This document shows, in pieces, positions 2,467 to 21,181 of a stretch of DNA of 64,000 nucleotides. Every line of letters starts with the position of its first letter. The stretch's first letter is position 1. A program made the position numbers and the translations under genes. Source of the stretch: Deltaproteobacteria bacterium (lineage in GTDB: Bacteria > Desulfobacterota > Syntrophobacteria > BM002); the NCBI GenBank assembly GCA_022340905.1, contig JAJDNB010000095.1, forward strand, positions 10,967 to 74,966, written 5' to 3'. The notes beneath the pieces are model-generated. The model was not told the origin of the DNA, did not search any database, and saw only the letters and a list, made by a program, of their open reading frames with translations.

Positions 2467-3858
2467 TCACTCCAACGTAAAAGTTTCTTGGAATTTGGGG
2501 ATGACCACATCCCATCCCAACCTTGTGTTGATTTTTTCTGCCAGTGATGATGAAGCATCGGGTTCACCGTGAACAATAAAGGTCTTTTGGGGAGGACGGT
2601 TGAAACCCATTAACCAAGCCAATATTTCGTTGTAATCTGCGTGGGCTGAGAAGCCGGATATGTTTTCAACCCGTGCCTTGATAGGAACATCTTCCCCGTG
2701 GATTTTCACCCTTGGGTTTCCGTCCAAGATTTTCCTCCCCCTCGTCCCTTCAGCCTGGTGTCCAATGAACAAAATGGTGTCTTTCCTAGAAGGGAGTCGA
2801 TGCCTCAAGTGATGCAAGATACGACCACCGGTGGCCATACCACTGGCGGAAATAATAATGGCATTTCTCTTTATCTCATTGAGCGCTTTGGATTCGTCTC
2901 GATGTCGACAAAACTTTAGCTGTTGCGGTTTTAGGATGGAGGTTCCCCGAATTTCCAAGACCTTCGCTACCAGACCATAACATCCTTTATTGTTTTCAAA
3001 GACAGCTGTTGTGTCGATTGCCATAGGTGAGTCCACGTACACCGGCAAAGAGGGAATCTCCTTGTCCTCCTCTAGCTCTCTTAGAGAGTAGAGCAGCTCC
3101 TGCGTCCGACCCACGGCAAAAGAAGGAATTACTAGCACTCCACCCCTGTCTACGCTGGCATTGATTACGGCTGCGAGATCCTTCTCTGGTGTTTCGTTTT
3201 GGTGCAGCCTGTTGCCGTAGGTTGATTCCAGGATAAGATAGTCGACCTCGAAGGGCTGGACAGGATCGCGAAGGATTGGTCTCGCTGGCCTACCCAGATC
3301 ACCGCTAAAGACGATCCTGCTTGCCCTCCCCTCTTTCATTAATTTGACGTCAACGAAGGAAGAGCCAAGTATGTGTCCTGCGTCCTTAAATTTTACCCGC
3401 AAGCTGTCAGTCAAAAATATGTCCTCACCGTAATGGTATGGCTCAAACTGTGATAGAGCGTTTTCTGCCTCCTCCACTGTATATAGCGGCAGGGCCGGTT
3501 TGTGTTTAGAGAATCCTCTTTTGTTGGCCCAAGTGGCGTCCTCTTCCTGAAGATGGCCTGAGTCGCGCAAAAGAATCTCACACAGGTTGTAGGTGGGGTG
3601 GGTACAATGGACCTTTCCCTTGAAACCCTGTTTACACAGCCGAGGCAGATAGCCAGAGTGATCAATATGAGCGTGGGTAAGAAAAACTCTGTCTAAATCA
3701 GTGGGAGCGATAGGAAAAGGTTCCCAGTTTCTCAACCTATTTTTCTTTAATCCTTGGAAAAGGCCACAATCTAACAGGAGACTGTTGCCGTCGATCTCTA
3801 GAAAAAAACGAGATCCTGTAACCGTACCCGTGGCACCTAAGAATGTTAGTTTTGTCAT
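2467..3858 (-). CDS. MBL-fold beta-CASP RNA-metabolising metallo-hydrolase (RNase J / CPSF-like)
   Basis: HAHIDHSGYLP metallo-beta-lactamase motif, beta-CASP and RMMBL-like C-terminus, length about 460 aa. Start chosen at MTKLTF (3858) because AGGA lies 9 nt upstream. The longer ORF start at 3891 has no RBS. Confidence 0.8.
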   Translation of the reverse strand: MTKLTFLGATGTVTGSRFFLEIDGNSLLLDCGLFQGLKKNRLRNWEPFPIAPTDLDRVFLTHAHIDHSGYLPRLCKQGFKGKVHCTHPTYNLCEILLRDSGHLQEEDATWANKRGFSKHKPALPLYTVEEAENALSQFEPYHYGEDIFLTDSLRVKFKDAGHILGSSFVDVKLMKEGRASRIVFSGDLGRPARPILRDPVQPFEVDYLILESTYGNRLHQNETPEKDLAAVINASVDRGGVLVIPSFAVGRTQELLYSLRELEEDKEIPSLPVYVDSPMAIDTTAVFENNKGCYGLVAKVLEIRGTSILKPQQLKFCRHRDESKALNEIKRNAIIISASGMATGGRILHHLRHRLPSRKDTILFIGHQAEGTRGRKILDGNPRVKIHGEDVPIKARVENISGFSAHADYNEILAWLMGFNRPPQKTFIVHGEPDASSSLAEKINTRLGWDVVIPKFQETFTLE

Positions 3859-3964
3859 CTTAGATCCTGCATTGAAGACACTAGACACCAAGTCTCGAGG
3901 TGTCAGGTGTCAGGGAGGAGAAACAGAAAAGCTGAAACCTGAACTCTGAAACCTTAGCTTATGT

Positions 3965-4649: not shown

Positions 4650-4844
4650 CTATAAATCTACAAGCATATCCGCCTCACTGCCACAACTTGTGCAGGTGAA
4701 GGATTTTTTTTCTTGCTGCTCCACTCCGGCAGCTTTCTTCTGGGGATCTTCTACGGGGACAAGTTCGCAGGTCACTATCATTTCCGCTTCGTTGCCGCAG
4801 TTTTCGCACTTGCAGACTTCCATCATCTGTCTTTTTTCCGCCAT
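4650..4844 (-). CDS. Small zinc-ribbon protein (two CxxC pairs), hypothetical
   Basis: 64 aa, CKCENCG ... CTSCG. RBS AGGAGAG upstream of the ATG. Acidic, with no recognisable family. Confidence 0.45.
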   Translation of the reverse strand: MAEKRQMMEVCKCENCGNEAEMIVTCELVPVEDPQKKAAGVEQQEKKSFTCTSCGSEADMLVDL

Positions 4845-5086: not shown

Positions 5087-5731
5087 ATGGCTGATCCAGA
5101 ACACGTGGCCAAACTGCGGCAGGGAGTAAAAGCTTGGAATACCTGGAGGGAAGGAAACCCGGATGTTGTTCCTGACCTCAAAAGTGCAGATCTTTCCAAT
5201 TTCAACTTGAGAGGCGCCTTTTTGGTAAGTGCTGATTTGGAACAAGTCTCTCTGGAGAGAGTCAATCTGGAGATGGCAATACTCTGGAAAGCAAATTTAT
5301 CTAAAGCAAACTTGTGGAGAGCCAGCTTAGAAGGTGCTGATTTCCTGGAAGCCAAACTGGCTGGTACAGAACTCATTAGAGCGGACCTGAGGAAAGTTGG
5401 ATTTTTGGGCGCTGATCTGGAGGGCGCTTCTCTAGCAGGTTCCAACCTAGAGGGAGCTGACTTCTGGAAAGCCAGATTGGTGGGTGCGAATCTTTACCGG
5501 GCTAATTTGTCAAAAGCTATGCTGTGGCGAGCCAACCTGGAGGGGGCCAATTTTGCCGAAGCCAAACTGGAAGGGGCGGTCCTCTGGAAAGCAAGACTGC
5601 TAAATGCACTGAATCTCAGGGTTGAGCAGCTCTCCGCGGTAAAAACTATTCAAGGATCGGAGTTAGAGGCAAGGCTCAGGATGGAGATTGAACGGAATTG
5701 CCCAAGTATTTTAGAAGAACCGCAGCGGTGA
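5087..5731 (+). CDS. Pentapeptide-repeat protein
   Basis: Long run of A(N/D)LxxAxLxxA pentapeptide repeats (ANLSKANLWRASLEGADFLEAKLAGTEL...). Start placed at MADPEH (5087) behind AGGAGGAAAGG. The upstream part of the ORF-track call (from 4994) is low-complexity read-through. Confidence 0.8.
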   Translation: MADPEHVAKLRQGVKAWNTWREGNPDVVPDLKSADLSNFNLRGAFLVSADLEQVSLERVNLEMAILWKANLSKANLWRASLEGADFLEAKLAGTELIRADLRKVGFLGADLEGASLAGSNLEGADFWKARLVGANLYRANLSKAMLWRANLEGANFAEAKLEGAVLWKARLLNALNLRVEQLSAVKTIQGSELEARLRMEIERNCPSILEEPQR

Positions 5732-5940
5732 TATTTGGTTTTCAGGAAAATTTGTTATATAAGTAGATTATGAGCACATAGTTCAACAGAGCAACGAACT
5801 AGGTCATGCCAAGGTTCTCCATTTCTGGTTAAATCTCAGGTGAAGAATTCGATAATTTACCCTAAGCGTTGGTTCGAGAATGGTTGAAGGCGGAACCGGA
5901 CAGGCAAAACTTTGTCACCTTTATAGACTGGGAGTAGTGA

Positions 5941-6459
5941 ATGAAGAAAGCGCCATTGCCAGAAAAAGTTACCATAGAAGTGGCGGCCAAGACATTGGGA
6001 GTGTCAAAAGGAACGATAGTGCACTACCTAAACAACGGAAGGTTGTCACGTATAAAAGAAGGATCGACGGTTTATGTTTCAACGGACGAGCTTGGTAAGC
6101 TACTTGAGACAAAGGTAGATCCAGCTGGCACCACTCCGAAGGCAGGGGCGGTCAAGGGTAAACAAGTCGTTGTCACCAGGGTTAAATCTAATGAAGGTGA
6201 TGGGACTACTATCACAGTGGATACGAATCATTATGAGGAAATGCTGACACGACTTGGACGACTCGAGTTGGAAAACCGTAATCTTCTTGCTTATAAAGAC
6301 AGTATGGTGAAGATAAAAAGCGTGTTGAGCGATAAAGAAAAGGAGCTGCAGAAGGCCACGGCCAAATTGCACATGATGGAAGAGGAACTTAGGCGGTTGC
6401 AAAAGATGGGCTGGTGGAAAAGGGTTTTCGGCAGAAAATGGCGAATGATTGGAGGATAG
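5941..6459 (+). CDS. HTH (excisionase/MerR-type) DNA-binding domain protein with C-terminal coiled coil
   Basis: N-terminal VAAKTLGVSKGTIVHYLNNGRL helix-turn-helix. The C-terminal 60 aa has a heptad coiled-coil pattern. RBS GGGAG upstream. Confidence 0.5.
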   Translation: MKKAPLPEKVTIEVAAKTLGVSKGTIVHYLNNGRLSRIKEGSTVYVSTDELGKLLETKVDPAGTTPKAGAVKGKQVVVTRVKSNEGDGTTITVDTNHYEEMLTRLGRLELENRNLLAYKDSMVKIKSVLSDKEKELQKATAKLHMMEEELRRLQKMGWWKRVFGRKWRMIGG

Positions 6460-6728
6460 TATACATCAAACCCAGGCAAATGTATCTGTTGGATTTCAAT
6501 CATTTGCCTTGGACTACACCTAACCTGAGGCTGTTTCAGATACTAGCATTATTTCCTCCCTATGACGCTTCCACATCCCCAGGACCTTCTTTCCCTTAAG
6601 CAATTAAGTGCATGATAATATGATGAAAGATAGGTTTGTGCGTTCTTTGCCTCTCCTCCCTACAGCTCTTGCCTTGAGTTTGGCACATATTCTGCTGTAA
6701 CCGGTGGGAATACACTCAAGGTAATCTG

Positions 6729-7148
6729 ATGGCAGATGAATTTGAAACTTATGGTGATCGACGCAAGGGCAAGGACAGAAGGGGCGACACTGATAGACGC
6801 TCTGGAAGGGATAGACGTAGTGGTGCTGAGAGAAGAAGTACCAGAGACAGACGGTCTGGCTGGGGAAAGGTGGACGAGGAGAGGTTGCAGGGTGCCCTGA
6901 CTGCGGCGGCCACGGTGGCACATCTGTTCAGCCAACCGTTGACAATAGTAATTGGGCACGTGGATCTACTGTTGTCCCGAGTGGAAGATCAAGCCGCCAG
7001 GAGAAAACTAGAAATAATCAAGGAACAATTGCAATCTTTGAGCATGACATTACAGGACTTGAGAAATCTTAGGCATTACAAGACAGTGGATTTGGATGGC
7101 CTTGTCCTGCTAGACATAGGACTACGAAAGGTTAAGAAGCTTGACTGA
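6729..7148 (+). CDS. HisKA (DHp) domain-only protein with N-terminal Arg-rich DRRSG repeats (Spo0B/ChpT-like phosphotransferase candidate)
   Basis: N-terminus DRRKGKDRRGDTDRRSGRDRRSGAERRSTRDRRSG, a degenerate 7-aa repeat. The core AHLFSQPLTIVIGHVDLL matches the HisKA H-box. No HATPase domain follows. Confidence 0.5.
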   Translation: MADEFETYGDRRKGKDRRGDTDRRSGRDRRSGAERRSTRDRRSGWGKVDEERLQGALTAAATVAHLFSQPLTIVIGHVDLLLSRVEDQAARRKLEIIKEQLQSLSMTLQDLRNLRHYKTVDLDGLVLLDIGLRKVKKLD

Positions 7149-7178
7149 GACTGGGACGCATCAGGAAGAGACACTACT

Positions 7179-7568
7179 TTGCGAGATGCCAAAAAAACAG
7201 AAATACTGTTATGGGACAAACACACAACTGAAAGAGAAGTAGTCGAAGAGATGCTCAGAAACCTCGGCTTTAATGTAACAGCCGTTAGTAGCGAGCATGA
7301 CTGTCTCAGAGAATTTTCTAATCGCAAATTTGATCTGGTAATTTTTGATCAAGGTCTGCCAGATCTAGATGTTAGAGAATTTGTTGATGAGTTGGCCGAG
7401 ATAGATCAAATGACACCAATAGCAATGATGGCAACTTTAGCTGTTGAATTCTATGAGAAAAGATTTGGAGGTTCCAATATTGATTTTCTTATAGTTAAGC
7501 CATTCGAGTTGGTTCAGCTTCAGAAGTTGGTTGAAGAAGCTGTGGAACTTGGCGAGCGACTGAAATGA
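7179..7568 (+). CDS. Stand-alone response-regulator receiver domain protein
   Basis: DLVIFDQGLPDLD (phospho-Asp), PIAMMAT (conserved T/S position), FLIVKPF (conserved Lys). No output domain. Confidence 0.6.
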   Translation: MRDAKKTEILLWDKHTTEREVVEEMLRNLGFNVTAVSSEHDCLREFSNRKFDLVIFDQGLPDLDVREFVDELAEIDQMTPIAMMATLAVEFYEKRFGGSNIDFLIVKPFELVQLQKLVEEAVELGERLK

Positions 7569-7630
7569 AGTGGTTAAATCAATGGCGTCAACGATCACCG
7601 TCGAACGGTGAAAAAGGAGGAGGTGAAAAG

Positions 7631-7831
7631 ATGGCTGAAAATGGTGGAGTATATGATAAGGTGGAATCCATCTTGGCAAAACTGTTTGTATTGAGGGATT
7701 CTTGCACGGGTGTTATACATAAAGGAGATTCCCCTTCCAACGCGATCTGGTTTCAGGGAGCTGAGACTATTCTGAAAGAGGCGGTGGATGAGCTTCAAGC
7801 GGCACTCCGCTCCCTAGAGGAGGGTAGTTAA
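7631..7831 (+). CDS. Small conserved hypothetical protein, copy 1 of a tandem triplicated family
   Basis: MAENGGVYDKVESILAKLFVLRDSCTGVIHKGDSPSNAIWFQGAETILKEAVDELQAALRSLEEGS. Start behind AAAGGAGGAGG. Stop overlaps the next start (TAATG). Confidence 0.5.
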   Translation: MAENGGVYDKVESILAKLFVLRDSCTGVIHKGDSPSNAIWFQGAETILKEAVDELQAALRSLEEGS

Positions 7832-8031
7832 TGAGCAATCATGGTGAAGTCTATGACAAAATGGAAAGTATCCTGGCAAAACTAAGCGTCTTAAGAGATT
7901 CTTGCACGGGCGTAATTCATAAAGAAGGGCCGAACTCCAATTTGATCTGGTTTCAGGGCGCCGAGGCCATGTTGCAAGAGGGGGTGGATGAACTCCAAAA
8001 GGCACTTCTTGCTCTGGAGGAGGGTAGTTAA
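7831..8031 (+). CDS. Small conserved hypothetical protein, copy 2 of the tandem family
   Basis: About 65% identical to copy 1 (VYDKMESILAKLSVLRDSCTGVIHKEGPNSNLIWFQGAE...). TAATG overlaps on both sides. Confidence 0.5.
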   Translation: MSNHGEVYDKMESILAKLSVLRDSCTGVIHKEGPNSNLIWFQGAEAMLQEGVDELQKALLALEEGS

Positions 8032-8324
8032 TGGCCAGCCATGGTGTAGTCTACGACAGGGTGGAAGGTATAGTGGCCAAACTTTATGTGCTGAGAGATT
8101 CCTGTACTGGAATAATTCACACGGAGAGATCAAACCCTAATCAGATGTGGTTTCAGGGCGCTGAGACAATCCTACAGGAAGCCGTGGATCAACTTCAGGG
8201 AGTACTTCAAGTTCTGGAAACCGGCGAGGAGGGTGAGCCTGCCATACCAGAGGAGGAAGTGGTAGAAGCCCCGAGCGAGGTGGATGAAGAGGAAGAAGAG
8301 ACTCCAGACGAAGAAACTGAGTGA
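8031..8324 (+). CDS. Small conserved hypothetical protein, copy 3, with acidic Glu-rich C-terminal tail
   Basis: Same core (VYDRVEGIVAKLYVLRDSCTGIIH..WFQGAE..) plus the tail EEGEPAIPEEEVVEAPSEVDEEEEETPDEETE. Confidence 0.5.
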   Translation: MASHGVVYDRVEGIVAKLYVLRDSCTGIIHTERSNPNQMWFQGAETILQEAVDQLQGVLQVLETGEEGEPAIPEEEVVEAPSEVDEEEEETPDEETE

Positions 8325-8377
8325 GGGAGATCTGCCCAGGGCCGGGATTGAACGAGCACACCAGAAGAGCTTGACTT

Positions 8378-9835
8378 TCAGGTAAGGACATTTAGGATTT
8401 CGGTAACCGCGAGGTTTCCTATGTCTTGCAGCCCTTTCCTTTTCAGCTCGTCTTCACTAAACAGCTCTCTCACGAGTGAGTAGAGACCGGACCTGATAAA
8501 CCCTTCTTCATAGGTCCCAAGCCTGATGCCAAATTCCACTCGCTCTCGATTTGAGGGTGACAGATTTTCAATCACTTCTTTACTAACCCAGATAGTCCCG
8601 CCCTGAGAAAATTCACTGAGCTTTACTGCCTCCACCAAGGTGTCTCCCACCACAGTGAACTCGAACGCCGACGGCGAGGGCATCATTCCCAACCAGTCGC
8701 GTCCACAGTGGATGCCAATGTTGACTCTAAGGGTGTTCTTCCAGGTTTGTTTGCTTTTCCACTCCCGGTCGATCTCGCGTACCATACTTTTCAGAGCACT
8801 GGCGCACAACAAAGACTGAAATAGATGGTCATCTTCCCGGCCTGGCACTTCGAGAAAAAAACAAACACTACCTTCCGTGCAGGATCGGCCGGGTGTCGCA
8901 CCGTGCTCTCTGAAGCACCGGTGCCAACCGAGGATAATCTGATTGATCAGATCAAAGTATGCAGAGGGAGAAAGAGCTGTACGCAGATGAAACTCAGACT
9001 CAAGACTGACGGCAAGGATACACAAGGATGTTGGAGAGGAGGTTTTCCGGAAAAATGTAGGCTTCGGTACCTTCGTCCTTCCAGTGAGTAACTCGAGCAT
9101 CTGACCCAGTTGCATGCTAGCCGGTGGGTATAGCAAGAGAGTCCCTTCCGGCAGGGCCCACGAAAGGAGTGTGTAGTGCTCAGCTCCACCATGGTGATAT
9201 TTTACTGTCAGTGTTTGCCCATCAAATGGCCGAGATGGCGCCATCTCTGTTTCATCCCACAACTGTCTGAGTTGAATTAGCAGGTGGGAGTCCTCATCGC
9301 GGTTTAAAGAAAGGAAGATTTCTGCGCCCACGTCTCTCTTAGCCAATTTCATATGAAACGTGAGGATTTCTTTCCAATTGACAAAGCGATCCTGCAATTT
9401 CTCGATCAAAGAGGGATCCAGAAACCGTCGTCTAACCTGAGACCCAAGCCCTCTGATATTTTCTCCAACCAGCAATTCTTCAGCCACCGAGTTCAGGCCG
9501 ATGATCTCCCAACTTCGGCTGACAAGAATGGCGGGAAATACAATTTGGTCAAGCCATGGGTACATCAGAGGTTCCTCTATAGCTTTCGGAGGCTCCGTAT
9601 CTTCATCCATAAAGTGCATTGCAATTTGAGCCATTCTCATACCTTGGCCTTTAAGTTGCTGTATTTTCTCTATCCGTTCCACAACCCACTCGGGGAAAAA
9701 GCCGATTTTGGTGGGACCACCCGGCTCTTCTGGCGGCCGCACTGATGGAGAAGGAATGAGGTCCATACCAATATAATTGTTGAGTGTAGCCCTGGAAATG
9801 CCAGTACGGGACATTACTTCTTTGCTTGAGATCAT
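8378..9835 (-). CDS. MerR-family HTH regulator fused to a degenerate class III nucleotidyl-cyclase-like (CHD) domain
   Basis: N-terminus MISSKEVMSRTGISRATLNNYI is a MerR HTH. C-terminus RVNIGIHCGRDWLGMM..EFTVVGDTLVEAVKLSEFSQGGTIWVS matches the second half of the cyclase homology domain. In the first half the metal-binding Asp is replaced (ILAVSLESEF). Start is uncertain, either 9835 or 9886. Confidence 0.55.
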   Translation of the reverse strand: MISSKEVMSRTGISRATLNNYIGMDLIPSPSVRPPEEPGGPTKIGFFPEWVVERIEKIQQLKGQGMRMAQIAMHFMDEDTEPPKAIEEPLMYPWLDQIVFPAILVSRSWEIIGLNSVAEELLVGENIRGLGSQVRRRFLDPSLIEKLQDRFVNWKEILTFHMKLAKRDVGAEIFLSLNRDEDSHLLIQLRQLWDETEMAPSRPFDGQTLTVKYHHGGAEHYTLLSWALPEGTLLLYPPASMQLGQMLELLTGRTKVPKPTFFRKTSSPTSLCILAVSLESEFHLRTALSPSAYFDLINQIILGWHRCFREHGATPGRSCTEGSVCFFLEVPGREDDHLFQSLLCASALKSMVREIDREWKSKQTWKNTLRVNIGIHCGRDWLGMMPSPSAFEFTVVGDTLVEAVKLSEFSQGGTIWVSKEVIENLSPSNRERVEFGIRLGTYEEGFIRSGLYSLVRELFSEDELKRKGLQDIGNLAVTEILNVLT

Positions 9836-9962
9836 TCCTGTCACCGTCAAGGTTGAAAAAAAGTTCGGCAAAGAATACACATTCAATTTACCAAAATGGA
9901 GCCATATGCAGCAAGCCTACTCGAACCCAACAAAGTTTCTGCCGGTGTTTTGACCTAGGTCA

Positions 9963-10367
9963 ATGGATAAACTTTTCGCTCAAGTTAAACAGAAGAACAT
10001 TAAGGTGGGAAATATAACCATTCACGCTAAAGAAGGAGTTTGGACGCACATGAAAAAAGTAAACATGTTTGAGGAAAACAGTTTCAAGGACAGCGGACTG
10101 AGTCGTCTGCTCGTCCACGATTCTCCCTATTTCAAAATCTTAAATTTTAACTTCAAAGCCGGTCAGGAGCTACCCCTTCACTCTCATGACATAGAGGGAG
10201 AGGTGAGCATTGCTGTGCTCGAAGGAAACGGAGAGTTTTTGGGCGATAATGATGAAACTTTTCCGGCTGGACCTGGCGATATTTTGATCTCTGAAATAGC
10301 CGAGCCGCACGGCTTAAAAGCTGAAACCGATATGCGGGTTCTGGTGACCATTGCCCCGCCCATATAG
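9963..10367 (+). CDS. Cupin-domain protein
   Basis: LPLHSHDIEGEVSIAVLEGNGEF ... PAGPGDILISEIAEPHG, a two-motif cupin signature. Confidence 0.75.
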   Translation: MDKLFAQVKQKNIKVGNITIHAKEGVWTHMKKVNMFEENSFKDSGLSRLLVHDSPYFKILNFNFKAGQELPLHSHDIEGEVSIAVLEGNGEFLGDNDETFPAGPGDILISEIAEPHGLKAETDMRVLVTIAPPI

Positions 10368-11635: not shown

Positions 11636-13624
11636 CTAATCTACCTCACCGGCTTCAACATCCAGAGCCTGACGATCTGCCATATCCATGAGCACGCGCT
11701 CACGCTCACCAATAATACCCAGAGCCTCGCGTTTCTTGTCAATATGGTCGATCACCATGGCGGCCATCTCATAGGGATCGGTGGCAAAACCCCACTTGCC
11801 TAGACCCTGCTTCTCCAACCCGTCAAAGAGCAGCTTGTGAAACTTGGTCTCCGCTATGGTGGGGAAGGTAACGCCAAACACCGTATATATTCCAGAGGCC
11901 ACCACATACTGACCAATGGCTATAGCCTTCTCACTGTACCACTCAGGGGCAACTCCGGCCACCGGCAGATCTGCTATGGTCTCACCCAAACCACCAGTCT
12001 TCACCATCTCAGCACAGGCAACGAGGATCCGGCTGTTGTCCACACAGCTACCCAGTCCCAATACCGGGGGCATGCCTACGGTCTCACAGACCTCCTGCAA
12101 GCCATCACCTGCCAATACCGAGGCATCAGGCTTCATCAACCCGGCCTTGGCCAGAGCTATCTGGGAACAACCAGTCTGCACCACCAAAATGTCGTTTTTG
12201 ATCAGTTCTTTCACCAACTCAACATGCACATAGTCCTGACGCACCCTGGGATTGGTGCAGCCAACCACACCGGCAACTCCCCGAATACGACCATTGATGA
12301 TGTTGTCATTCAAGGGCACATACGATGCCCGGAAGGTACCACCAAGCATGTAGTTGATGTATTCGTGGCTGAAGCCGTGAATCCCCAAAGACTTATTCTG
12401 GGGAATCACTATCTTGGCCTTGCGATTCTTGAATCGCTTGATCGCCTCTTTCACCACCTTGTCCGTGCACTGCCTCGGTTTATGCTCCTCAAACTCAATG
12501 TGCTCCGCACCCTCCATCTTGGCTCGGGGATTGGTGGTGAAAAACTTGGTGCCATAACACTCAGCAAGAGGCGCCAGAGCAGGCATGATACACTGCACAT
12601 CCACTGCCATGGCATCCACTGCACCGGTGATCAAAACCGCCTCGGTGCTCATGAAATTACCCGCATGGGGTATCCCGTGACGACACAATACTTCGGCACC
12701 AGAGCAGCACATGCCCAAAATATTGATGCCTTCGGCTCCCGCTCCCTTAGCCTCTTCCAATAGCTTGGGATCATTTACCGAAGCAATCAAAGACTCAAAC
12801 AGGTTGGGCTCATGACCATTTACAATGATGTTCACCTGCTTCTCATCCAAATAACCCATGTCTACCCCAGCCAAAACCGGAGAGGGCGTGCCAAACAATA
12901 TGTCAGAGATCTCGGTGGCCACCATGGAACCACCCCAACCATCGGCAAGGGCTGTACGACTGCACTGCTTTACCATGTTCTCGTAGTCCTGATCCACTCC
13001 CATGTGGGTCCGGTGCATGATCTCCATGATCTCCCGCATGGCCCCACGGGGAACGATCCCCAGCTCGCGCCACTTGGCCAAGGTCTTGGGCGGTACCCGG
13101 CTGGCAAAGGGAATCTCACCCTCAACCTGAGTGTAGGTACGCTCCAATTCTTTGTAGAGATCCGTGGCTACCTCCTTGACCTCACGACCAGCTGTCTCGA
13201 TACCTAAACCTTCGGCTACATCGAAAAGCTTCTGCTCGTCTTTGATTTTGTAGTCCTTGATCTCACCATTTACCACGCCACGAAACACATCCAGCATGGT
13301 CATGCCGTGGTCCGTGTGGGCCGCAGTACCCGCTGCCACCATCCGGGCAAAGTTCCGCGAGGCGATGGTGTCGATGGTTGCCCCGCATATGCCCGTCTTC
13401 GCATAGGGATCCTTGGAGGACAGCCGGCAGGGACCCATGGAACAGTGCTTACAACAGGCAGAGTCAGCTCCTATGGGACAGGCCTTCATCTCCGCTGCCC
13501 GGTGAAAGGCGGTCTCTACCCCGTCTTCCGCTGCCTTGCGCAACATCTGCTGGGTGGATTTGCAGGTGGTTACCTGCATGATCGGTAGTTCTTTCTTTTT
13601 CTTCTCCTTTACCTCTTCTGCCAT
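11636..13624 (-). CDS. cooS: Anaerobic Ni-dependent carbon monoxide dehydrogenase catalytic subunit
   Basis: 662 aa. N-terminal cluster motif CPIGADSACCKHCSMGPCR with further Cys/His ligands. Homologous to the adjacent Hcp, as expected for the prismane/CODH family. Confidence 0.85.
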   Translation of the reverse strand: MAEEVKEKKKKELPIMQVTTCKSTQQMLRKAAEDGVETAFHRAAEMKACPIGADSACCKHCSMGPCRLSSKDPYAKTGICGATIDTIASRNFARMVAAGTAAHTDHGMTMLDVFRGVVNGEIKDYKIKDEQKLFDVAEGLGIETAGREVKEVATDLYKELERTYTQVEGEIPFASRVPPKTLAKWRELGIVPRGAMREIMEIMHRTHMGVDQDYENMVKQCSRTALADGWGGSMVATEISDILFGTPSPVLAGVDMGYLDEKQVNIIVNGHEPNLFESLIASVNDPKLLEEAKGAGAEGINILGMCCSGAEVLCRHGIPHAGNFMSTEAVLITGAVDAMAVDVQCIMPALAPLAECYGTKFFTTNPRAKMEGAEHIEFEEHKPRQCTDKVVKEAIKRFKNRKAKIVIPQNKSLGIHGFSHEYINYMLGGTFRASYVPLNDNIINGRIRGVAGVVGCTNPRVRQDYVHVELVKELIKNDILVVQTGCSQIALAKAGLMKPDASVLAGDGLQEVCETVGMPPVLGLGSCVDNSRILVACAEMVKTGGLGETIADLPVAGVAPEWYSEKAIAIGQYVVASGIYTVFGVTFPTIAETKFHKLLFDGLEKQGLGKWGFATDPYEMAAMVIDHIDKKREALGIIGERERVLMDMADRQALDVEAGEVD

Positions 13625-13938
13625 AGTTTTCTCCTTAAAAGATTCAGATAAATTTGCTCCCTGAATTTTGCTTGCTAGACCTTAAAGTCACTTGCTGTTT
13701 TGGAGACCTATAAAAAGGTGAGCAGTAATCGTGCCAGAAAGATGAATGCATAAAGTCATTTAATATTAACTAGTTACGATCAGGCAATAAACGAATCATT
13801 GTCCGGATTATGCCATAATGGAATAATGCCATTCCATTCTGGAGTTATCCTTGTAAAAGAGAATTCCCAGCGCTGTCGTCGCGGCAGCTTCTTACTAGAT
13901 AGGAAGATTTAAAATAATTTTTTCAGTTTTTTTCTTTC

Positions 13939-13952
13939 TTGACTTAAGTCAA
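13939..13952. promoter_or_regulatory. CRP/FNR-family (HcpR-type) binding palindrome TTGAC-TTAA-GTCAA about 95 bp upstream of hcp
   Basis: Perfect TTGACnnnnGTCAA inverted repeat. A TACAAT -10-like hexamer lies about 30 bp downstream (13981-13986). It sits in the 425-bp divergent cooS-hcp intergenic region. Confidence 0.5.
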
Positions 13953-14049
13953 TGCCGGTGACCATGCTATTTATTACAGTTACAATCAATTAATCTTCAA
14001 GAGCAAAAACAACAGTTAGTGTAAATAGATTCAGCTTTAGAAAAGGAGG

Positions 14050-15684
14050 ATGTACATGTTTTGTTATCAATGCGAGCAAACGGCAAAAGGTGAAGGGTGC
14101 ACCAAGATAGGGGTATGTGGCAAGGAACCCGAGGTTGCTGCCCTTCAAGATCTATTGACCTACGGACTTATCGGGCTTTCTCAATATGCTGTCGAGGGCC
14201 GTAAAGTTGGCGTTAGCGAGCGGGACGTCAATGTATTTACAGTCGAGGCTTCTTTTTCCACCTTGACTAATGTGGACTTCGATCCTGATCGCTTCGTGGG
14301 CTTGATCAATCAAGCGGTGGAAAAGCGAGAGGGACTGGCGGAGAAAGTCAAGGCTGCGGGCGGAAAAGTTGATTTCGCCGATGGGCCTGCCACCTTCAAA
14401 CCCGAGACCACCCTGGACGGCCTGATCCGGCAGGGAGAGGCAGTGGGCATTAAGTCCTATCCAGCAGACAATCCCGATATTCTTTCCCTGAAACACACGG
14501 TGCTCTTTGGTATCCGGGGAATATCCGCTTATGCAGACCATGCGCAGATTCTCGGACAAGAGGACGACACAGTCTATGGCTTCGTCCACGAGGCTCTTGC
14601 GGCACTGTGGAGAGAAGATCTCGGACTGGAAGATTGGGTTGGATTGGCCCTCAAGTGCGGTGAAATAAATCTCAGGACCATGGAACTTCTAGATGCTGGA
14701 AATACAGGAACCTACGGGCATCCTGTGCCAACAAAAGTTCCGTTGGGACATAAGAAAGGCAAGGCCATCCTGGTCTCGGGTCACGACCTGAAAGACATGG
14801 AAGAACTGCTCAAGCAGACACAAGGCAAGGGAATCCATATTTACACGCACGGCGAGATGCTACCTACCCACGGTTACCCGGAGCTAAAGAAATACGAGCA
14901 TTTTTACGGTCATTATGGCACAGCTTGGCAGAACCAGGGCAAAGAGTTCATGCAGTTCCCTGGTGCTATCTTGATGACCACAAACTGTATCCAGAGGCCC
15001 AAGGAGGAGTACAGGAATAACATCTTTACCTGCGGCCTGGTTGGCTGGCCCGGGATAGCCCACATCTCCGACCGCAACTTTCAGCCGGTCATCGATCGAG
15101 CTCTTGCCCTACCGGGATTCCAGGAGGATGAAAACGGCAAGGATGTAATGGTGGGATTCGGCAGGAATACCGTCTTGGGTGTTGCCGATAAGGTCATCGA
15201 GGCAGTAAAGGGCAAAGCCATCCGTCACTTCTTTGTAGTGGCAGGCTGCGATGGAGCCAAGCCCGGTCGGAATTACTACACCGAGTTCGTGGAAAAGGTT
15301 CCCGAAGATACCGTGGTTTTGACCTTTGCTTGCGGCAAGTTTCGATTCTTCGACAAGGACCTGGGAGACATCGGTGGTATTCCGAGGTTGCTGGACATTG
15401 GCCAGTGCAATGACGCCCATTCGGCAATCCAGATTGCCGTGGCCCTGGCTAACGCTTTTAATGTAGGAGTCAATGATTTGCCCCTGTCGATAATCTGCTC
15501 GTGGTATGAGCAAAAGGCAGTGGCGATCCTTTTGTCCTTGCTCCATCTGGGAATCAAGGACATTCGCCTTGGACCTTCTCTACCGGCCTTTGTTTCCCCC
15601 AACGTCCTCGATGTCTTGGTGAAGAACTTCGACATCAAACCCATTACCACGCCGGACCAGGATCTCAAGGCGATTTTGGGATAG
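14050..15684 (+). CDS. hcp: Hybrid-cluster protein (hydroxylamine reductase)
   Basis: N-terminus MFCYQCEQTAKGEGCTKIGVCGK, 544 aa. RBS AAAGGAGGA. Confidence 0.9.
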   Translation: MYMFCYQCEQTAKGEGCTKIGVCGKEPEVAALQDLLTYGLIGLSQYAVEGRKVGVSERDVNVFTVEASFSTLTNVDFDPDRFVGLINQAVEKREGLAEKVKAAGGKVDFADGPATFKPETTLDGLIRQGEAVGIKSYPADNPDILSLKHTVLFGIRGISAYADHAQILGQEDDTVYGFVHEALAALWREDLGLEDWVGLALKCGEINLRTMELLDAGNTGTYGHPVPTKVPLGHKKGKAILVSGHDLKDMEELLKQTQGKGIHIYTHGEMLPTHGYPELKKYEHFYGHYGTAWQNQGKEFMQFPGAILMTTNCIQRPKEEYRNNIFTCGLVGWPGIAHISDRNFQPVIDRALALPGFQEDENGKDVMVGFGRNTVLGVADKVIEAVKGKAIRHFFVVAGCDGAKPGRNYYTEFVEKVPEDTVVLTFACGKFRFFDKDLGDIGGIPRLLDIGQCNDAHSAIQIAVALANAFNVGVNDLPLSIICSWYEQKAVAILLSLLHLGIKDIRLGPSLPAFVSPNVLDVLVKNFDIKPITTPDQDLKAILG

Positions 15685-15782
15685 TTACCCTTGAATGGTT
15701 TAGCGGGAGGGGGTCAACCCCTCTCCCCTACACCCCCCTTTGGAAGGGGATATGAGATTGGAAATTTGGGGTTGCAGGCTTT

Positions 15783-15890
15783 AGGTTTCGGGCGTCAGGT
15801 GTCGGGTTTCGGGAAAAATAAAGTGAAACGCTAAAGGTGAATCCTGAATAGCTTATAGCTAAACACTGAAACCCGAACACTGAAACCTGA
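15783..15890. repeat. Copy of the GGTTTCGGG palindromic repeat between hcp and narG
   Basis: AGGTTTCGGGCGTCAGGTGTCGGGTTTCGGG ... CACTGAAACCCGAACACTGAAACCTGA. Confidence 0.7.
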
Positions 15891-16086
15891 TTCAAGAGGC
15901 AACAGATTCGTGTCCGGTGGAAGCTATCCATTGGGAAGAATAAGACATATCGAAAGACTGAGACAAACTTAGAGCAAAATAAATTCCGCTAATTTACTAG
16001 GATCCCAGGTTAGGCCGAAATAGTTGTCCGGTCAAAAATAAGGGCTGCACAATCGTTGCCCATACCATCAAAAATGGAGGGAAACT

Positions 16087-19000
16087 ATGGCAAAGAGAAG
16101 TCTTCTGTCCTCTCTTCGCTTTCTTAGACCTCGAACCACCTGCGTAAAGGAAGCCCTTGCTGGGGGCTGGGCTGAGGTCCGTTGCGGCGAGCGGGATTGG
16201 GAGGATTTCTATCGAAAAAGATGGCAGTATGACAAGAAGGTCCGTTCAACTCATGGGGTCAACTGCACAGGTTCCTGCTCATGGGATGTTTACGTCAAGG
16301 ACGGGATTATAGTATGGGAGACCCAGAGAGGCGACTATCCGAGTTGCGGACCCGATCTTCCCGACCACGAGCCTCGGGGCTGCCCCCGGGGAGCTACCTT
16401 CTCCTGGTACACCTATAGCCCGGTACGACTAAAATACCCCTACATTCGCTCGGTCTTGTTAGAAATGTGGCGAACTCAGATCGATTCCACGGACGATCCG
16501 GTGACCGCCTGGCAGACCATTGTGGAGGATGAAGAAAAGAGGAAAATCTACCAACAAGCTCGGGGAAGAGGTGGATTTGTTCGTGTTCCCTGGGAGGAAG
16601 CTGCCACTCTCATAGCAGCATCCTTAGTGTATACCATAAAGAAATATGGACCAGAGAGAATATTTGGCTTTACCCCCATCCCCGCCATGTCTATGGTTTG
16701 CTATGCTTCGGGCGCACGCTTTCTTTCTCTCATAGGCGGGTCCTTGATCAGCTTTTACGACTGGTACTGCGATCTGCCCCCTGCATCTCCCCAAATCTGG
16801 GGCGAACAAACAGATGTTCCGGAAAGCGCTGACTGGTATGAGTCGAGTTATATGATTGTCTGGGGGACTAACCTGCCTATGACCCGAACCCCTGACGCCC
16901 ACTTCTTCACCGAGGCACGCTACCGGGGGGCCAAGGTTGCAGCGGTAGCGCCAGACTACGCTGAATATGTGAAATTTGCCGACACCTGGCTACCGGCCAA
17001 GGCTGGTACTGACACCGCCCTGGCCATGGCTATGACCTTTGTTATTTTCAAGGAATTCTACCTAGAGCGACCCTCCGAGTACTTCACATCCTATGCGAAA
17101 GCCTATACGGATCTTCCCTTCGCCGTGGTTTTAAAATCAAAAGATGAACTGTACGTGTCGGAGAGGTTTTTAAGAGCCTCAGACCTAGGTTTCGACCAGG
17201 AAAACGGAGAATGGAAAACACTCTATTACGACCTGAACAGCAAGACTTTTGTAGTGCCCAACGGCAGCATAGGTTTCCGTTGGAACGAGGAAGGACGGTG
17301 GAATCTTCACCAGCTTGATTCAGTGAGTGGGGAAGCGGTGGATCCGCTCCTGAGCTTTGCCGGGGAAAATGATGGGTGGGTGTCCGTCGGCTTTCCCTTG
17401 TTTGATTTCCAAGGTGCAAAGGTAAGAATTGGTAAAGTTCCGGTGAAAAGAATAGTGGGGGACGGTGAGGGAATTACGGTCGCGACGGTCTTTGATCTCA
17501 TGGCAGCCAACCTTGGGATGGACAGGGGACAAGGAGGAGAGGTTGCCAAGGACTATGATGAGGCGAAAGCTTACACGCCCGGTTGGCAGGAGGCTATAAC
17601 CGGCGTTTCCAAAGCTGATGTGATCAGAGTAGCTCGGGAATTCGCCGAGAATGCGGACAAGACTAAGGGAAAGTCCATGATTTTTCTGGGGGCAGGCACC
17701 AACCACTGGTACCACAACGATATGACCTACCGGGCCATCCTGAACCTCACCACCCTCTGCGGCTGCCAGGGGGTAAACGGTGGTGGCTGGGCCCACTATG
17801 TTGGTCAAGAGAAGATTCGCCCCCAGGCTTCCTGGTCTGCAATTGCATTCGGCCTGGATTGGCGCCGGCCGCCGAGACAGCAGAATGGCACTTCCTTTTA
17901 CTATTTTGCCACTGATCAGTACCGCTACGAGACCTTTGACGCCAGTCACCTACGTTCCCCCTTGGCCGAGAAGTGGGTGGATAAACACTTGGCTGATTAT
18001 AACGTGATTGCCGCGAGGCTCGGCTGGCTGCCCTCCTATCCTCAGTTCAACCGGAACCCTTTGCAGCTGTGCAAAGAGGCGGTAGAAAATGGAGCTACCT
18101 CCGATGAAGAAATCATCTCTTACGTGGTGGAGAGGCTGAAGAAAGGAGAAATAAAGTTTGCCCTGGAAGACCCGGACAGTCCGGAAAATTGGCCTCGCCT
18201 ACTTTTTCTGTGGCGAGCAAATCTGCTGGGTGCCAGCGGCAAGGGGCATGAGTACTTTCTCAAACATCTTCTGGGAACAGAGCATTCGGTGTTAAATCGT
18301 GAAAGTGAGAAAAAGACAGAGGAGGTTCTGTGGAGGGATCCTGCCCCCGAAGGCAAGCTGGATCTCTTGGTCACCTCAGAGCTCCGAATGTCTACCAGTG
18401 CTCTTTACGCTGACGTGGCCTTACCCGCGGCATCTTGGTACGAGATGCATGATCTCAGCACCACGGATCTGCACTCTTTTATCCACCCTTTTAACCCCGC
18501 AATTGATCCTCCCTGGGAGAGCAGGACAAATTGGGATCAGTTCAAAACCATTGCCGAGAAATTTTCTGAACTGGCGGTTGGTCATCTCGGTGAAGAAAAG
18601 GATTTAGTTGCCACTCCCTTGCTCCACGATTCTCCTGGAGAGATCGCCCAACCTAAGGTGAAAGACTGGAAAAGGGGTGAGGTGGAGCCTGTACCCGGAA
18701 AAACCATGTCGAACCTCACCGTGGTGACTCGGGACTACCCGAATACTTACAAGATGATGACCTCATTGGGGCCACTGGTGGCTAGTGTGGGGATCGGTTC
18801 CAAGGGGGTGACCTGGAAGGCGGATCAAGAATACGAGGACCTGAAGGCAAAATTGGGAACGGTCTCAACTGGCGGAGTAACTGAGGGGATGCCTCAGTTG
18901 CAGACAGGTAAGCAAGTGGCGGAAGCGATCCTGGCTCTGGCCCCGGAGACCAATGGAAACACAGCGGTAAAGGCGTGGCAGACCCTAGAGAAAAAGACAG

Positions 19001-19770
19001 GACTCAATCTGGCCCATTTGAGTGTTGAGAGAAAAGGGGAAAAGATGAGTTTTGCAGATCTTGATGGACAACCGCGCAAGATCATCACCAGCCCCATCTG
19101 GAGTGGCATAGAGTCCGAAGACCGTTTTTATTCGCCCTTTGTGATTAACATAGAGGAAAAAGTTCCCTTTCGCACCCTCACTGGTCGGGCCCAGTTCTAC
19201 CAGGATCACGAGTGGATGTTGGCCTTTGGTGAGGGGTTGCCGGTTTTCCGGCCACCTTTGGACATGCAGGCCCTGGGCTCCACCGAGATTGGTCGCAGTG
19301 ATAGCAAAGAAATTATCTTAAACTATCTCACCCCCCATTCCAAATGGTCCATTCATAGCACCTATTCCGATACTCTGATCATGTTAACTCTCTTCCGGGG
19401 AGGAGAGGCTATCTGGATCAATGACGAGGATGCGTCCTCCATTGGCGTCGAAGACAATGATTGGCTCGAGTGCTTCAATGTCAATGGAGTGGTGATGGCA
19501 AAGGCTGTTGTAAGTCACCGAATCCCCAGAGGGAAAGCTTTCATGTATCACGCTCAAGAGAGAATGATCAACACTCCCGGGTCGCAGCTGTCAGGTAAAC
19601 GAGGGGGAACCCACAACAGCGTTACTCGTATCCTGGTGAAGCCAACCCAAATGATTGGCGGATATGCTCAACTGAGTTACGGCTTCAACTATTATGGCCC
19701 CACAGGTGCCCAAAGGGATGAAGTTATTGTGGTCCGGAAGGCAGGAAAGGTTGATTGGTATGAAGATTAA
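16087..19770 (+). CDS. narG: Respiratory nitrate reductase alpha subunit
   Basis: 1227 aa. N-terminal FS0 region HGVNCTGSCSWDVYVKDG. Mo-bisMGD domain architecture. Confidence 0.95.
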   Translation: MAKRSLLSSLRFLRPRTTCVKEALAGGWAEVRCGERDWEDFYRKRWQYDKKVRSTHGVNCTGSCSWDVYVKDGIIVWETQRGDYPSCGPDLPDHEPRGCPRGATFSWYTYSPVRLKYPYIRSVLLEMWRTQIDSTDDPVTAWQTIVEDEEKRKIYQQARGRGGFVRVPWEEAATLIAASLVYTIKKYGPERIFGFTPIPAMSMVCYASGARFLSLIGGSLISFYDWYCDLPPASPQIWGEQTDVPESADWYESSYMIVWGTNLPMTRTPDAHFFTEARYRGAKVAAVAPDYAEYVKFADTWLPAKAGTDTALAMAMTFVIFKEFYLERPSEYFTSYAKAYTDLPFAVVLKSKDELYVSERFLRASDLGFDQENGEWKTLYYDLNSKTFVVPNGSIGFRWNEEGRWNLHQLDSVSGEAVDPLLSFAGENDGWVSVGFPLFDFQGAKVRIGKVPVKRIVGDGEGITVATVFDLMAANLGMDRGQGGEVAKDYDEAKAYTPGWQEAITGVSKADVIRVAREFAENADKTKGKSMIFLGAGTNHWYHNDMTYRAILNLTTLCGCQGVNGGGWAHYVGQEKIRPQASWSAIAFGLDWRRPPRQQNGTSFYYFATDQYRYETFDASHLRSPLAEKWVDKHLADYNVIAARLGWLPSYPQFNRNPLQLCKEAVENGATSDEEIISYVVERLKKGEIKFALEDPDSPENWPRLLFLWRANLLGASGKGHEYFLKHLLGTEHSVLNRESEKKTEEVLWRDPAPEGKLDLLVTSELRMSTSALYADVALPAASWYEMHDLSTTDLHSFIHPFNPAIDPPWESRTNWDQFKTIAEKFSELAVGHLGEEKDLVATPLLHDSPGEIAQPKVKDWKRGEVEPVPGKTMSNLTVVTRDYPNTYKMMTSLGPLVASVGIGSKGVTWKADQEYEDLKAKLGTVSTGGVTEGMPQLQTGKQVAEAILALAPETNGNTAVKAWQTLEKKTGLNLAHLSVERKGEKMSFADLDGQPRKIITSPIWSGIESEDRFYSPFVINIEEKVPFRTLTGRAQFYQDHEWMLAFGEGLPVFRPPLDMQALGSTEIGRSDSKEIILNYLTPHSKWSIHSTYSDTLIMLTLFRGGEAIWINDEDASSIGVEDNDWLECFNVNGVVMAKAVVSHRIPRGKAFMYHAQERMINTPGSQLSGKRGGTHNSVTRILVKPTQMIGGYAQLSYGFNYYGPTGAQRDEVIVVRKAGKVDWYED

Positions 19771-21181
19771 AGCGCAGATTGGGATGGTTCTAAATTTGGA
19801 CAAGTGTATCGGTTGCCATACCTGCAGCATTCCCTGCAAGAATGTCTGGACCAATAGGACTGGAGCCGAATACATCTGGTTCAACAACGTGGAGACCAAG
19901 CCGGGGATCGGCTACCCTAAGAAATGGGAGAATCAGACGATCCACAAGGGTGGCTGGAAGATGGATGCAAAACTTCGCCTTCGTGCTGGCGGTCAACCGA
20001 GCAAGCTGTTGAAGATCTTTCACAACCCTGATTTACCAGCCATTGATGAATATTACGAGCCTTGGACCTACAACTATGACAAGTTGATTTCCACTGCCCA
20101 GAAAAAACATCAGCCTTCAACCAGGCCCCAATCCCTGATCACTGGCAAGCCCATACGGCTCAGATGGGGCCCAAACTGGGAGGACGATCTAGCCGGGGTC
20201 AGTGAAACGGGCACGGGAGATGTTAATTTCAACAACCTGGACTACCAGGTTTACCTGCAGTTCAAAAAAGTGTTTATGTTTTACCTCCCCCGCCTTTGTG
20301 AACACTGCCTTAATCCAGCCTGCGTGGCCTCTTGTCCCTCAGGTGCTCTCTACAAGCGGGAGGAGGATGGAATCGTCTTGGTGGATCAGGAGAGATGCCG
20401 TGGGTGGCGATATTGTGTTTCAGGTTGTCCATACAAAAAGGTCTATTTCAACTGGGAGACCGGTAGATCCGAAAAATGTATTTTCTGTTATCCCAGAATT
20501 GAAGCAGGAATGACCAGTCTCTGCGCTGAGACCTGTGTTGGCAAGATACGCTATGTGGGTGTCATTCTCTACGATGCAGATAAAATTGCCATGACAGCCT
20601 CCACTGAGAAAGAGCAAGAACTGTATCCCGCCCAAGCCAGGATGTTCCTGGATCCCACGGACCCGGCAGTTGTTGCCGAAGCTATTTCTCAAGGAATACC
20701 GCAGAGCTATATCGAAGCAGCCCAACAGTCTCCGGTCTATAAGTTGGCGGTAGACTGGCAATTGGCCTTCCCACTCCATCCTGAATTCAGAACCCTGCCC
20801 ATGGTCTGGTACATTCCGCCACTGAGCCCTCTGGTGCAGTTTTTCGACGAATCTGTTGCTGATGTCCACGATCCTGAGGTGATGAGAATTCCATTGACCT
20901 ATCTTGCCAATCTTCTCACTGCCGGCGATAGGGAACCGGTCCGGATGGCATTGCGTCGACTCATGGCCCTGAGAAGCTACATGCGTTCCAGGCGGCTGGA
21001 AGGTAAAGCAGATGCTCATGTTCTTGAAAAAGTGGGAATGACCGAGGAGATGGCACAGGGGATTTACCGATTGCTTGCCATCGCCAAATACAAAGATCGT
21101 TTCGTCATTCCTACCACAAAGAAAGAAACGGAGGTCGATCTCTATCGCGGCCAAGGGGCCGCGGGGTTTGATTCGCATTGA
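19760..21181 (+). CDS. narH: Respiratory nitrate reductase beta subunit (4 Fe-S clusters)
   Basis: MKIKAQIGMVLNLDKCIGCHTCSIPCKNVW canonical NarH N-terminus. Start 19760 overlaps the narG stop by 11 nt. The ORF-track start at 19694 is an upstream extension. Confidence 0.95.
   Translation: MKIKAQIGMVLNLDKCIGCHTCSIPCKNVWTNRTGAEYIWFNNVETKPGIGYPKKWENQTIHKGGWKMDAKLRLRAGGQPSKLLKIFHNPDLPAIDEYYEPWTYNYDKLISTAQKKHQPSTRPQSLITGKPIRLRWGPNWEDDLAGVSETGTGDVNFNNLDYQVYLQFKKVFMFYLPRLCEHCLNPACVASCPSGALYKREEDGIVLVDQERCRGWRYCVSGCPYKKVYFNWETGRSEKCIFCYPRIEAGMTSLCAETCVGKIRYVGVILYDADKIAMTASTEKEQELYPAQARMFLDPTDPAVVAEAISQGIPQSYIEAAQQSPVYKLAVDWQLAFPLHPEFRTLPMVWYIPPLSPLVQFFDESVADVHDPEVMRIPLTYLANLLTAGDREPVRMALRRLMALRSYMRSRRLEGKADAHVLEKVGMTEEMAQGIYRLLAIAKYKDRFVIPTTKKETEVDLYRGQGAAGFDSH

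Follow-up and report, generated by a model that had tools for sequence, protein, structure and literature searches.

Our analysis of a 64-kb stretch of DNA from a Deltaproteobacteria bacterium (hereafter the window, to which all window coordinates refer) suggests that three consecutive small genes, T1, T2 and T3 (7631–8324), encode a helical-bundle hub: each protein is a predicted antiparallel two-helix hairpin, one of the three carries an acidic tail, and the bundle would dock a kinase-less DHp-like dimer and/or a stand-alone receiver (REC), both encoded just upstream, and would belong to, or regulate, an assembly handled by a ParA/MinD-type ATPase with a CBM48 glycogen-binding module. We assign this reading a probability of about one half. 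In what follows, L-numbers designate compared loci and P-numbers designate cluster representatives of the hairpin family.

The three genes lie on the + strand at 7631–7831 (T1, 66 aa; supported by its open reading frame, its sequence and a match to the family hidden Markov model, E 1e-29), 7831–8031 (T2, 66 aa; open reading frame, sequence and AlphaFold2 model) and 8031–8324 (T3, 97 aa; open reading frame and family model); T3 consists of a hairpin (8031–8228) followed by a 33-residue acidic tail. At the T1/T2 and T2/T3 junctions the stop codon of one gene overlaps the start codon of the next as TAATG, and these overlaps are kept in 11 other loci. A Shine–Dalgarno sequence, GGAGGAGGTG, lies at 7616–7625 (+), 5 nt 5′ of the T1 ATG; of the 12 loci compared, the window among them, 11 have GGAGGTG there and L012 has GGAGGTA. 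T2 and T3 have no Shine–Dalgarno sequence of their own beyond the overlap, which is consistent with translational coupling. An alternative 88-aa T1 from an ATG at 7565 exists as an open reading frame and in some database entries; we favor the start at 7631 because its Shine–Dalgarno sequence is conserved and the orthologues are 66–67 aa long. A promoter and terminator scan of 5700–10100 gave fewer matches than shuffled sequence.

An earlier reading of this DNA from its letters (the sequence-only reading) had described three consecutive genes with TAATG overlaps and a shared consensus, and that description is correct, with 37 invariant columns among the three copies. Its figure of about 60–65% identity captured the paralogy and was slightly low (we measure 73% for T1/T2, 65% for T1/T3 and 62% for T2/T3), and its poly-Glu tail on the third copy is indeed a tail, but of mixed acidic composition (18 Asp/Glu in 33 residues). 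Compared with four related genomes, the ratio of nonsynonymous to synonymous substitution rates is 0.02–0.16 across T1, T2 and T3 (0.07–0.16 for T1); judged by these ratios, the trio is under strong purifying selection and does not represent chance open reading frames. Within the window clade the copies of the trio are far closer to one another than to copies of other lineages, and in L013 (8001–8398) T1 and T2 are 89% identical, versus 73% in the window, suggesting gene conversion or (independent) recent duplication in the array.

The sequence-only reading did not recognize the family and had left room for its being confined to this DNA. The family does occur elsewhere: a word-indexed search recovered 212 homologues, all “hypothetical proteins” and mostly from Syntrophobacteria or “Deltaproteobacteria” metagenome-assembled genomes, and a profile search run exhaustively against 1.84 billion cluster representatives returned 60 clusters at 50% identity (E ≤ 0.001), so the family is genuine but small. 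A scan of a genome collection seeded with the close alignment (A2) recovered mostly the window’s own clade. The lack of annotation holds as well: T1–T3 have no match in Pfam, NCBIfam, PADLOC or PHROGs; 41 diverse family members have no consistent match in Pfam; and PDB sequences, searched with a profile, gave only noise, the best match (E 0.85) being to an expression tag. By these comparisons the hairpins are a new, unnamed sequence family without a relative of solved structure, and there are precedents in kind, namely small accessory proteins that form helical bundles in signalling cassettes, and the oligomerizing modules of ParA partners.

Several other assignments were tried and rejected. 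Membership of the Spo0E-like phosphatases (PF09388) was rejected, as neither T1–T3 nor the 41 members match at E ≤ 5 and the SQELD motif is absent; an origin of the hairpin from a DHp domain was rejected with an hhalign probability of 0.4% for the hairpin family (A3) against the DHp-like family (A5) and no Pfam HisKA match; defence-system and phage origins were rejected, PADLOC and PHROGs giving no match; and a ribosomally synthesized and post-translationally modified peptide precursor was dropped on whole-length conservation, the lack of a variable core and the lack of modification enzymes nearby.

The structure prediction that the sequence-only reading had proposed returns a generic fold: the AlphaFold2 model of T2 is an antiparallel two-helix hairpin (helices 2–30 and 38–63; predicted local distance difference test score, pLDDT, 89.4). 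Hydrophobic residues follow a heptad pattern at positions 7/11/14/18/21/25/28 of helix 1 and 41/44/48/51/55/59/62 of helix 2, with extra hydrophobics alongside, a pattern characteristic of hairpins assembling into larger bundles. Six positions are at least 90% conserved across the family (L18, L21 and S24 in helix 1; W40, G43 and A44 in helix 2), and Cys25 and Phe41 come close to this level. The sequence, the heptad register and the hairpin model place Cys25 at a core position facing Gly43/Ala44 of helix 2; because these opposing residues are small, helix packing is indicated rather than a ligand site. The ligand-binding half of the earlier suggestion of a “ligand-binding or partner-switching” module is accordingly not borne out by this generic hairpin with its core cysteine, and the partner-switching or interaction half is compatible with the evidence.

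Cys25 invites a different explanation, in which the cysteines of the subunits meet in the core and a disulfide or thiolate metal site alters assembly and signals to the REC/DHp pair. The residue is conserved in most members and occupies a core position by heptad register, and the genes near the trio in the window include those for a MerR-type regulator, two hybrid-cluster proteins and a nitrate reductase; however, these surroundings of the cassette are not conserved in loci outside the clade. Moreover, several members have Trp, Phe, Tyr or Ala in place of Cys25, and one domain of some fused pairs has lost it too (e.g. dC of L039); each subunit has one cysteine, with no CxxC and no histidine partner; and the packing of this cysteine on Gly43/Ala44 is what close helix packing predicts. 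We therefore consider a redox or metal sensor distinctly unlikely.

Several other lineages encode two hairpins as a single fused polypeptide of 166–188 aa with an acidic C-terminal tail (P0121, P0122, P0124, P0127 and P0131; L033, L036 and L039; and ~25 metagenome loci), the two domains within one fused pair being 24–48% identical. A single-sequence AlphaFold2 model of the P0122 fused pair has four helices and a disordered tail, and it superposes on up-down four-helix bundles with template-modelling scores of 0.5–0.66, none of them statistically significant. In L035 (89–2472) a second, independent trio has its third copy fused to PatA_N and PilZ domains and has no acidic tail; in all lineages examined, it is the last copy that bears a C-terminal extension, either an acidic tail or, in L035, PatA_N and PilZ. 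A PilZ protein precedes the L035 trio and a GlgB gene is nearby, linking the hairpin family to cyclic diguanylate (c-di-GMP) receptors and, again, to glycogen genes. The overlapping (presumably coupled) genes, the two-hairpin fusions and the single tail-bearing subunit together indicate that the trio probably forms a hetero- or mixed oligomeric helical bundle.

Immediately upstream of the trio lie a kinase-less, DHp-only (HisKA-like) protein of 139 aa (6729–7148, +; Pfam HisKA E 9.3e-6, and synteny) and a stand-alone receiver of 129 aa with a TTG start (7179–7568, +; Response_reg E 6.5e-14, and synteny), separated by 30 nt from each other and, for REC, by 62 nt from T1; the sequence-only reading had this arrangement right, at a spacing it gave as 30–60 bp. 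The HisKA score of the DHp-like protein, 26.0 bits, is just below the 26.9 cutoff, and the HisKA-like match stands alone in the 139 aa, with no HATPase_c. At their N termini the DHp-only proteins also carry successive (D/N)RR-x-x-x repeats that close with G-W-G (window 6729–6880; L082 6947–7357).

Alignment with EnvZ and HK853 shows that the H-box histidine is present in the window and in 13 of 13 clade relatives (VAHLFSQPLT), and that Phe or Tyr takes its place in all fused-pair lineages (L033, L036 and L039 among them) and in 17 metagenome loci. The Phe/Tyr count is partly circular, since one of the two search patterns demanded Phe or Tyr; the second pattern, which left the H-box unconstrained, recovered a sister class of DHp proteins that contain the histidine and are followed in 11 of 11 loci by a REC-HD-GYP regulator and no hairpins (for example L082, where the REC-HD-GYP gene at 7541–8701 stands in place of REC and hairpins). 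Alignment of the window receiver with CheY and Spo0F shows that it keeps D12, D57, T87 and K109 and has Lys at the metal ligand D13; in the other loci this position is Lys, Gly, Arg, Ser or Cys, and it is Asp in L018 only. The D13K variant of CheY is not phosphorylatable, yet it is active. Phe/Tyr at the H-box together with the missing D13 argues that the cassette as a whole is independent of His-Asp chemistry; the window clade may nevertheless rely on it, and the window also encodes a hybrid kinase (29180–31291). The earlier proposal that the trio sits at the output of a phosphorelay is thus weak on three counts, namely the Phe/Tyr replacement of the DHp histidine in fused-pair lineages, the replacement of REC D13, and the variability of His30 in the hairpins.

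The gene order provides the link between the hairpins and these signalling proteins. In the window clade a block conserved in 14 loci comprises a beta-CASP nuclease, a NUDIX protein, a 64-aa zinc ribbon, a pentapeptide-repeat protein and an HTH_17 protein, then the cassette of DHp-like protein, REC and trio, and finally a reversed MerR/cyclase-like gene. Beyond the clade, L033 (a Desulfobulbaceae metagenome-assembled genome) encodes a MerR/cyclase-like protein, a PAS-HD-GYP protein, a DHp-like protein, REC and a fused pair; L039 encodes a DHp-like protein, REC and a fused pair; and L036 encodes the same three and, after them, a ParA-type ATPase and a fourth protein of the hairpin family. With the distant DHp-like proteins as seeds, a scan of metagenomes yielded 56 loci, and among the 17 with a Phe/Tyr DHp-like gene and at least 1.3 kb downstream, REC and then a fused pair follow in 16. 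The order DHp-like protein, REC, hairpins is therefore kept in four lineages (the window clade, L033, L036 and L039) and in some 30 metagenome loci, and linkage at such greater evolutionary distance is more telling than synteny within a clade. The neighborhood outside the cassette is not conserved beyond the window clade.

The sequence-only reading had asked whether homologues are always next to REC or HisKA genes: the linkage does extend beyond the clade, but “always” does not hold, as hairpins without such neighbors occur as singletons (L021–L032), at ParA-linked loci and in L038. The singletons are paralogues, 55–65% identical, located elsewhere in trio-bearing genomes (L021, 8001–8336; L022–L032). 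The singleton of L021 and the clusters P0128 and P0136 have a conserved C-terminal extension, EKGRKEWADVERLIRKLD, and the L021 gene, which has neither a REC nor a DHp gene nearby, adjoins open reading frames whose translations, read by eye, resemble trehalose-phosphate synthase and glycosyltransferase. The distant “YPP” subtype of L038 adjoins an HTH_3 gene.

This linkage also bears on the alternative that the hairpins regulate the adjacent pair, acting as a receiver phosphatase (Spo0E/CheZ-like) or as an anti-kinase on the DHp helices (Sda-like). Spo0E, CheZ and Sda are helical hairpins, and Spo0E and CheZ insert a catalytic side chain into the active site of the receiver. Tight linkage to REC and DHp-like genes in four lineages is what such a regulator would show, as are the hairpin shape with conserved polar residues near the tip (R22, D23, S24 and Q/E42) and the retention in the window clade of REC D57, T87 and K109 and of the DHp histidine. 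However, none of the 41 members matches Pfam Spo0E or another phosphatase family; no SQELD-type or D-x-x-x-Q motif is present, position 42 varying in the family (Q, E, K, D, S, R or H) and D23 varying too; and in most lineages that keep the hairpins the DHp histidine is lost and REC D13 is absent, so that in those lineages neither activity would find a target. A role of this kind also leaves the three conserved copies, the fused pairs and the relatives that are ParA partners unexplained, and we regard it as unlikely.

A third possibility is that the hairpins are Hpt-like four-helix bundles that finish a His-Asp-His relay, or pairs of secreted hairpins of the WXG100 type. The DHp and REC context, the W-F-x-G at the hairpin turn, the tandem genes and the likely formation of four-helix bundles by pairs would fit one or the other. 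For Hpt, the decisive residue is missing: His30 is invariant among the window copies only and varies in the rest of the family (Y, F, N, L, K, S or others), and no histidine is conserved in the fused pairs, which excludes an Hpt role. For WXG100, Pfam PF06013 matches only 1 of the 41 members (E 0.068), the hairpins have 66 aa rather than ~100 aa, the motif is W-x-x-G and not W-x-G, and no type VII secretion genes (EccC/EssC) occur among the called neighbors of at least 10 Pfam-labelled loci, a check of neighbors and not an exhaustive genome search. Taken together, this explanation is most improbable.

What ties the hairpins to spatial organization, a connection that the sequence-only reading missed, is a second gene context. 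In nine cluster representatives (P0151, P0153, P0157, P0160, P0162, P0164, P0165, P0175 and P0179) the hairpin is preceded by an N-terminal peptide, R[GS][LF]xx[VI]xH[FL]FL[ST], and a variable linker. All five peptide-bearing hairpin genes that could be placed on contigs lie directly 3′ of a gene for a ParA/MinD ATPase (partner genes: L036 4036–4518; L097 8001–8297; L037 1497–1847; L034 592–945; L096 743–1267), and this ATPase has a deviant Walker A motif (KGGCGKT) and a C-terminal AMPK1_CBM/CBM48 glycogen-binding module (L097 6888–7967; L037 313–1389; L036 2928–3905; L098 4062–5285). The ParA-CBM48 family is large and widespread in Desulfobacterota metagenome-assembled genomes, Syntrophobacterales among them. 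Cassette and ParA module are adjacent in L036 and lie on one contig, CALZHP010000001.1, in the case of L033 and L097, so that one genome holds both.

The genes that follow ParA-CBM48 share the peptide and differ beyond it, encoding either a hairpin or a different set of domains. In L098 (Syntrophobacterales) the 390-aa partner (5303–6475) starts with the same peptide, RGLERVSHLFLSG, and continues with HTH_17, a coiled coil, a probable membrane-spanning stretch (translation read by eye) and RodZ_C. The window encodes a relative of this second type directly within the conserved block: an HTH_17 and coiled-coil protein with a Trp/Arg-rich C-terminal tail (5941–6459, +; Pfam HTH_17, syntenic in the clade), whose residues 8–158 align with residues 29–195 of the L098 partner (BLASTP E 1e-21). 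The window protein is a shorter paralogue, with neither the N-terminal peptide nor the membrane part of the L098 partner. Its tail, MGWWKRVFGRKWRMIGG, sits where the L098 homologue runs into the apparent transmembrane helix and may be an amphipathic membrane-binding segment. The window cassette thus contains, in its hairpins and its HTH_17 protein, homologues of two alternative partners of one ATPase family.

ParA/MinD ATPases contact, as a general rule, the N-terminal part of the partner protein (PMC11407121), and the shared N-terminal peptide is a candidate ATPase-interacting peptide. The same review of ParA/MinD cargos makes no mention of glycogen (PMC11407121), and our literature searches on glycogen-linked ParA returned nothing relevant; ParA-CBM48 may represent an undescribed cargo or matrix for the ParA/MinD ATPase family.

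Combining the two contexts, we propose the following model for the hub. T1, T2 and T3 would be translated in fixed proportion from one message and would assemble through their heptad seams into a small cytoplasmic hetero-oligomeric helical bundle of antiparallel hairpins, with L-R-D-S-C-x-G at the end of helix 1 and W-F-x-G-A at the start of helix 2 forming the hairpin tip and packing seam, and with the acidic tail of the last subunit alone projecting from the bundle. The bundle would serve as a protein-interaction hub for a cassette that pairs a single-domain receiver of degenerate metal site with a kinase-less DHp dimer, and this receiver/DHp pair would decide whether, or with what, the hub associates; control would be by docking and not necessarily by phosphotransfer, which would be possible in the window clade. 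Because the hairpin is the C-terminal module of ATPase partners and the HTH_17 protein is paralogous to another such partner, the hub would most likely be part, or a regulator, of a structure positioned by a ParA-CBM48 ATPase. Parts of c-di-GMP signalling may provide input in some lineages, as in the PilZ fusion of L035, the PAS-HD-GYP protein of L033 and the REC-HD-GYP proteins of the sister class.

Several observations weigh against the hub. The synteny within the window clade is partly just close kinship. The window clade retains the DHp histidine as well as REC D57, T87 and K109, and true phosphotransfer may occur there. The fused-pair model was built from a single sequence (pLDDT 71), and every fold match has E ≥ 0.02. 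The copies may be interchangeable subunits of a homo-oligomer, as the 89% identity of T1 and T2 in L013 would allow; hetero-oligomerization of the trio, like its binding to REC or the DHp-like protein, is a property that we infer. Finally, T1–T3 begin directly with the hairpin, without the ParA-type N-terminal peptide, and a tblastn search of the 64-kb window and of L001–L032 turned up no ParA-like gene; for the genome of the window, the ParA link is hence likewise one that we infer.

A more far-reaching version of the hub can be offered only tentatively, and we think it fairly unlikely to hold: the trio would be the core of an unrecognized spatial-organization system of Desulfobacterota, in which a hub gated by the degenerate DHp/receiver pair acts as cargo or anchor of the glycogen-binding ParA/MinD-CBM48 ATPase, which would position glycogen granules or use glycogen as its matrix instead of the nucleoid or the membrane, with interchangeable partners of the hairpin type or the HTH_17/RodZ_C type.

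Among the other genes around the cassette, the one that follows the trio encodes a 502-aa protein with MerR-HTH, MLTR_LBD-like and class III cyclase-like regions (8378–9886, −; Pfam); the sequence-only reading had it as divergent, and it is in fact convergent, tail to tail with the trio. In a manual alignment its metal-binding Asp positions are Ser (AVSLES) and Glu (TEGS) in the window and Asp in both cases in L033 (VADLQDS and GDG), and the Ser and Glu suggest that the window protein is probably catalytically dead. The beta-CASP metallo-beta-lactamase nuclease (2467–3891, −), syntenic in the clade, matches the NCBIfam model of type VII CRISPR Cas14 (403 bits, E 1.6e-120), far under the 800-bit cutoff; it also matches aCPSF1-type RNases and is probably an ordinary beta-CASP RNase. 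The 64-aa zinc-ribbon-like protein (4650–4844, −) has two CxxC pairs and is 83–95% identical across the clade, above its neighbors. Farther away are two hybrid-cluster (prismane) genes (11636–13624, −, and 14050–15684, +), NarG/NarH-type nitrate reductase subunits (16087–21181), a multihaem cytochrome (27461–28858) and a PAS-HisKA-HATPase-REC hybrid kinase (29180–31291); taken together, 11636–21181 and 27461–31291 resemble a region devoted to nitrogen-oxide respiration or stress.

These findings describe a protein family that is conserved under strong selection in uncultured sediment bacteria resembling Syntrophobacteria and Desulfobulbaceae. A kinase-less DHp protein next to a receiver without its metal ligand would offer a natural case of two-component parts reused as docking modules, especially in the lineages in which the phospho-accepting histidine is replaced. 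The ParA-CBM48 link suggests that this ATPase family may have a new cargo or matrix, and it names candidate partners together with a peptide by which they can be recognized.

The cassette can be compared with several known systems. As in a canonical two-component pair, the H-box histidine is present in the window, whereas the complete receiver site (D13) and HATPase_c are missing. The gene upstream of REC is like Spo0B and ChpT in encoding a DHp hairpin without an ATP-binding domain beside a single-domain receiver, with the H-box histidine kept in the clade; it differs from them in the Phe/Tyr of the fused-pair lineages and in its long (D/N)RR-repeat and GWG segment. WXG100/ESAT-6 proteins share with the trio tandem small helical hairpins, Trp and Gly at the turn and probable four-helix bundles, whereas the trio has 66-aa hairpins with W-F-x-G-A, no secretion machinery nearby and a cytoplasmic signalling context. 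Spo0E-family phosphatases, CheZ and Sda are, like the trio, small all-helical hairpins that are encoded next to receiver or DHp domains or act on them, and their functional residues are located on the hairpin; the trio has no sequence or motif match to them, its partners are degenerate, and it comes as three copies or fused pairs. The partners of ParA/MinD ATPases (McdB, PomX and the N-terminal peptides of ParB) have no sequence similarity to the hairpins, the ATPase here carries CBM48, and the window trio differs from them in having neither an N-terminal peptide nor an adjacent ParA gene; its relatives, however, share with these partners a layout in which a variable linker joins a short conserved N-terminal peptide to an oligomerizing helical module at the C terminus, and they are, likewise, encoded directly after the ATPase.

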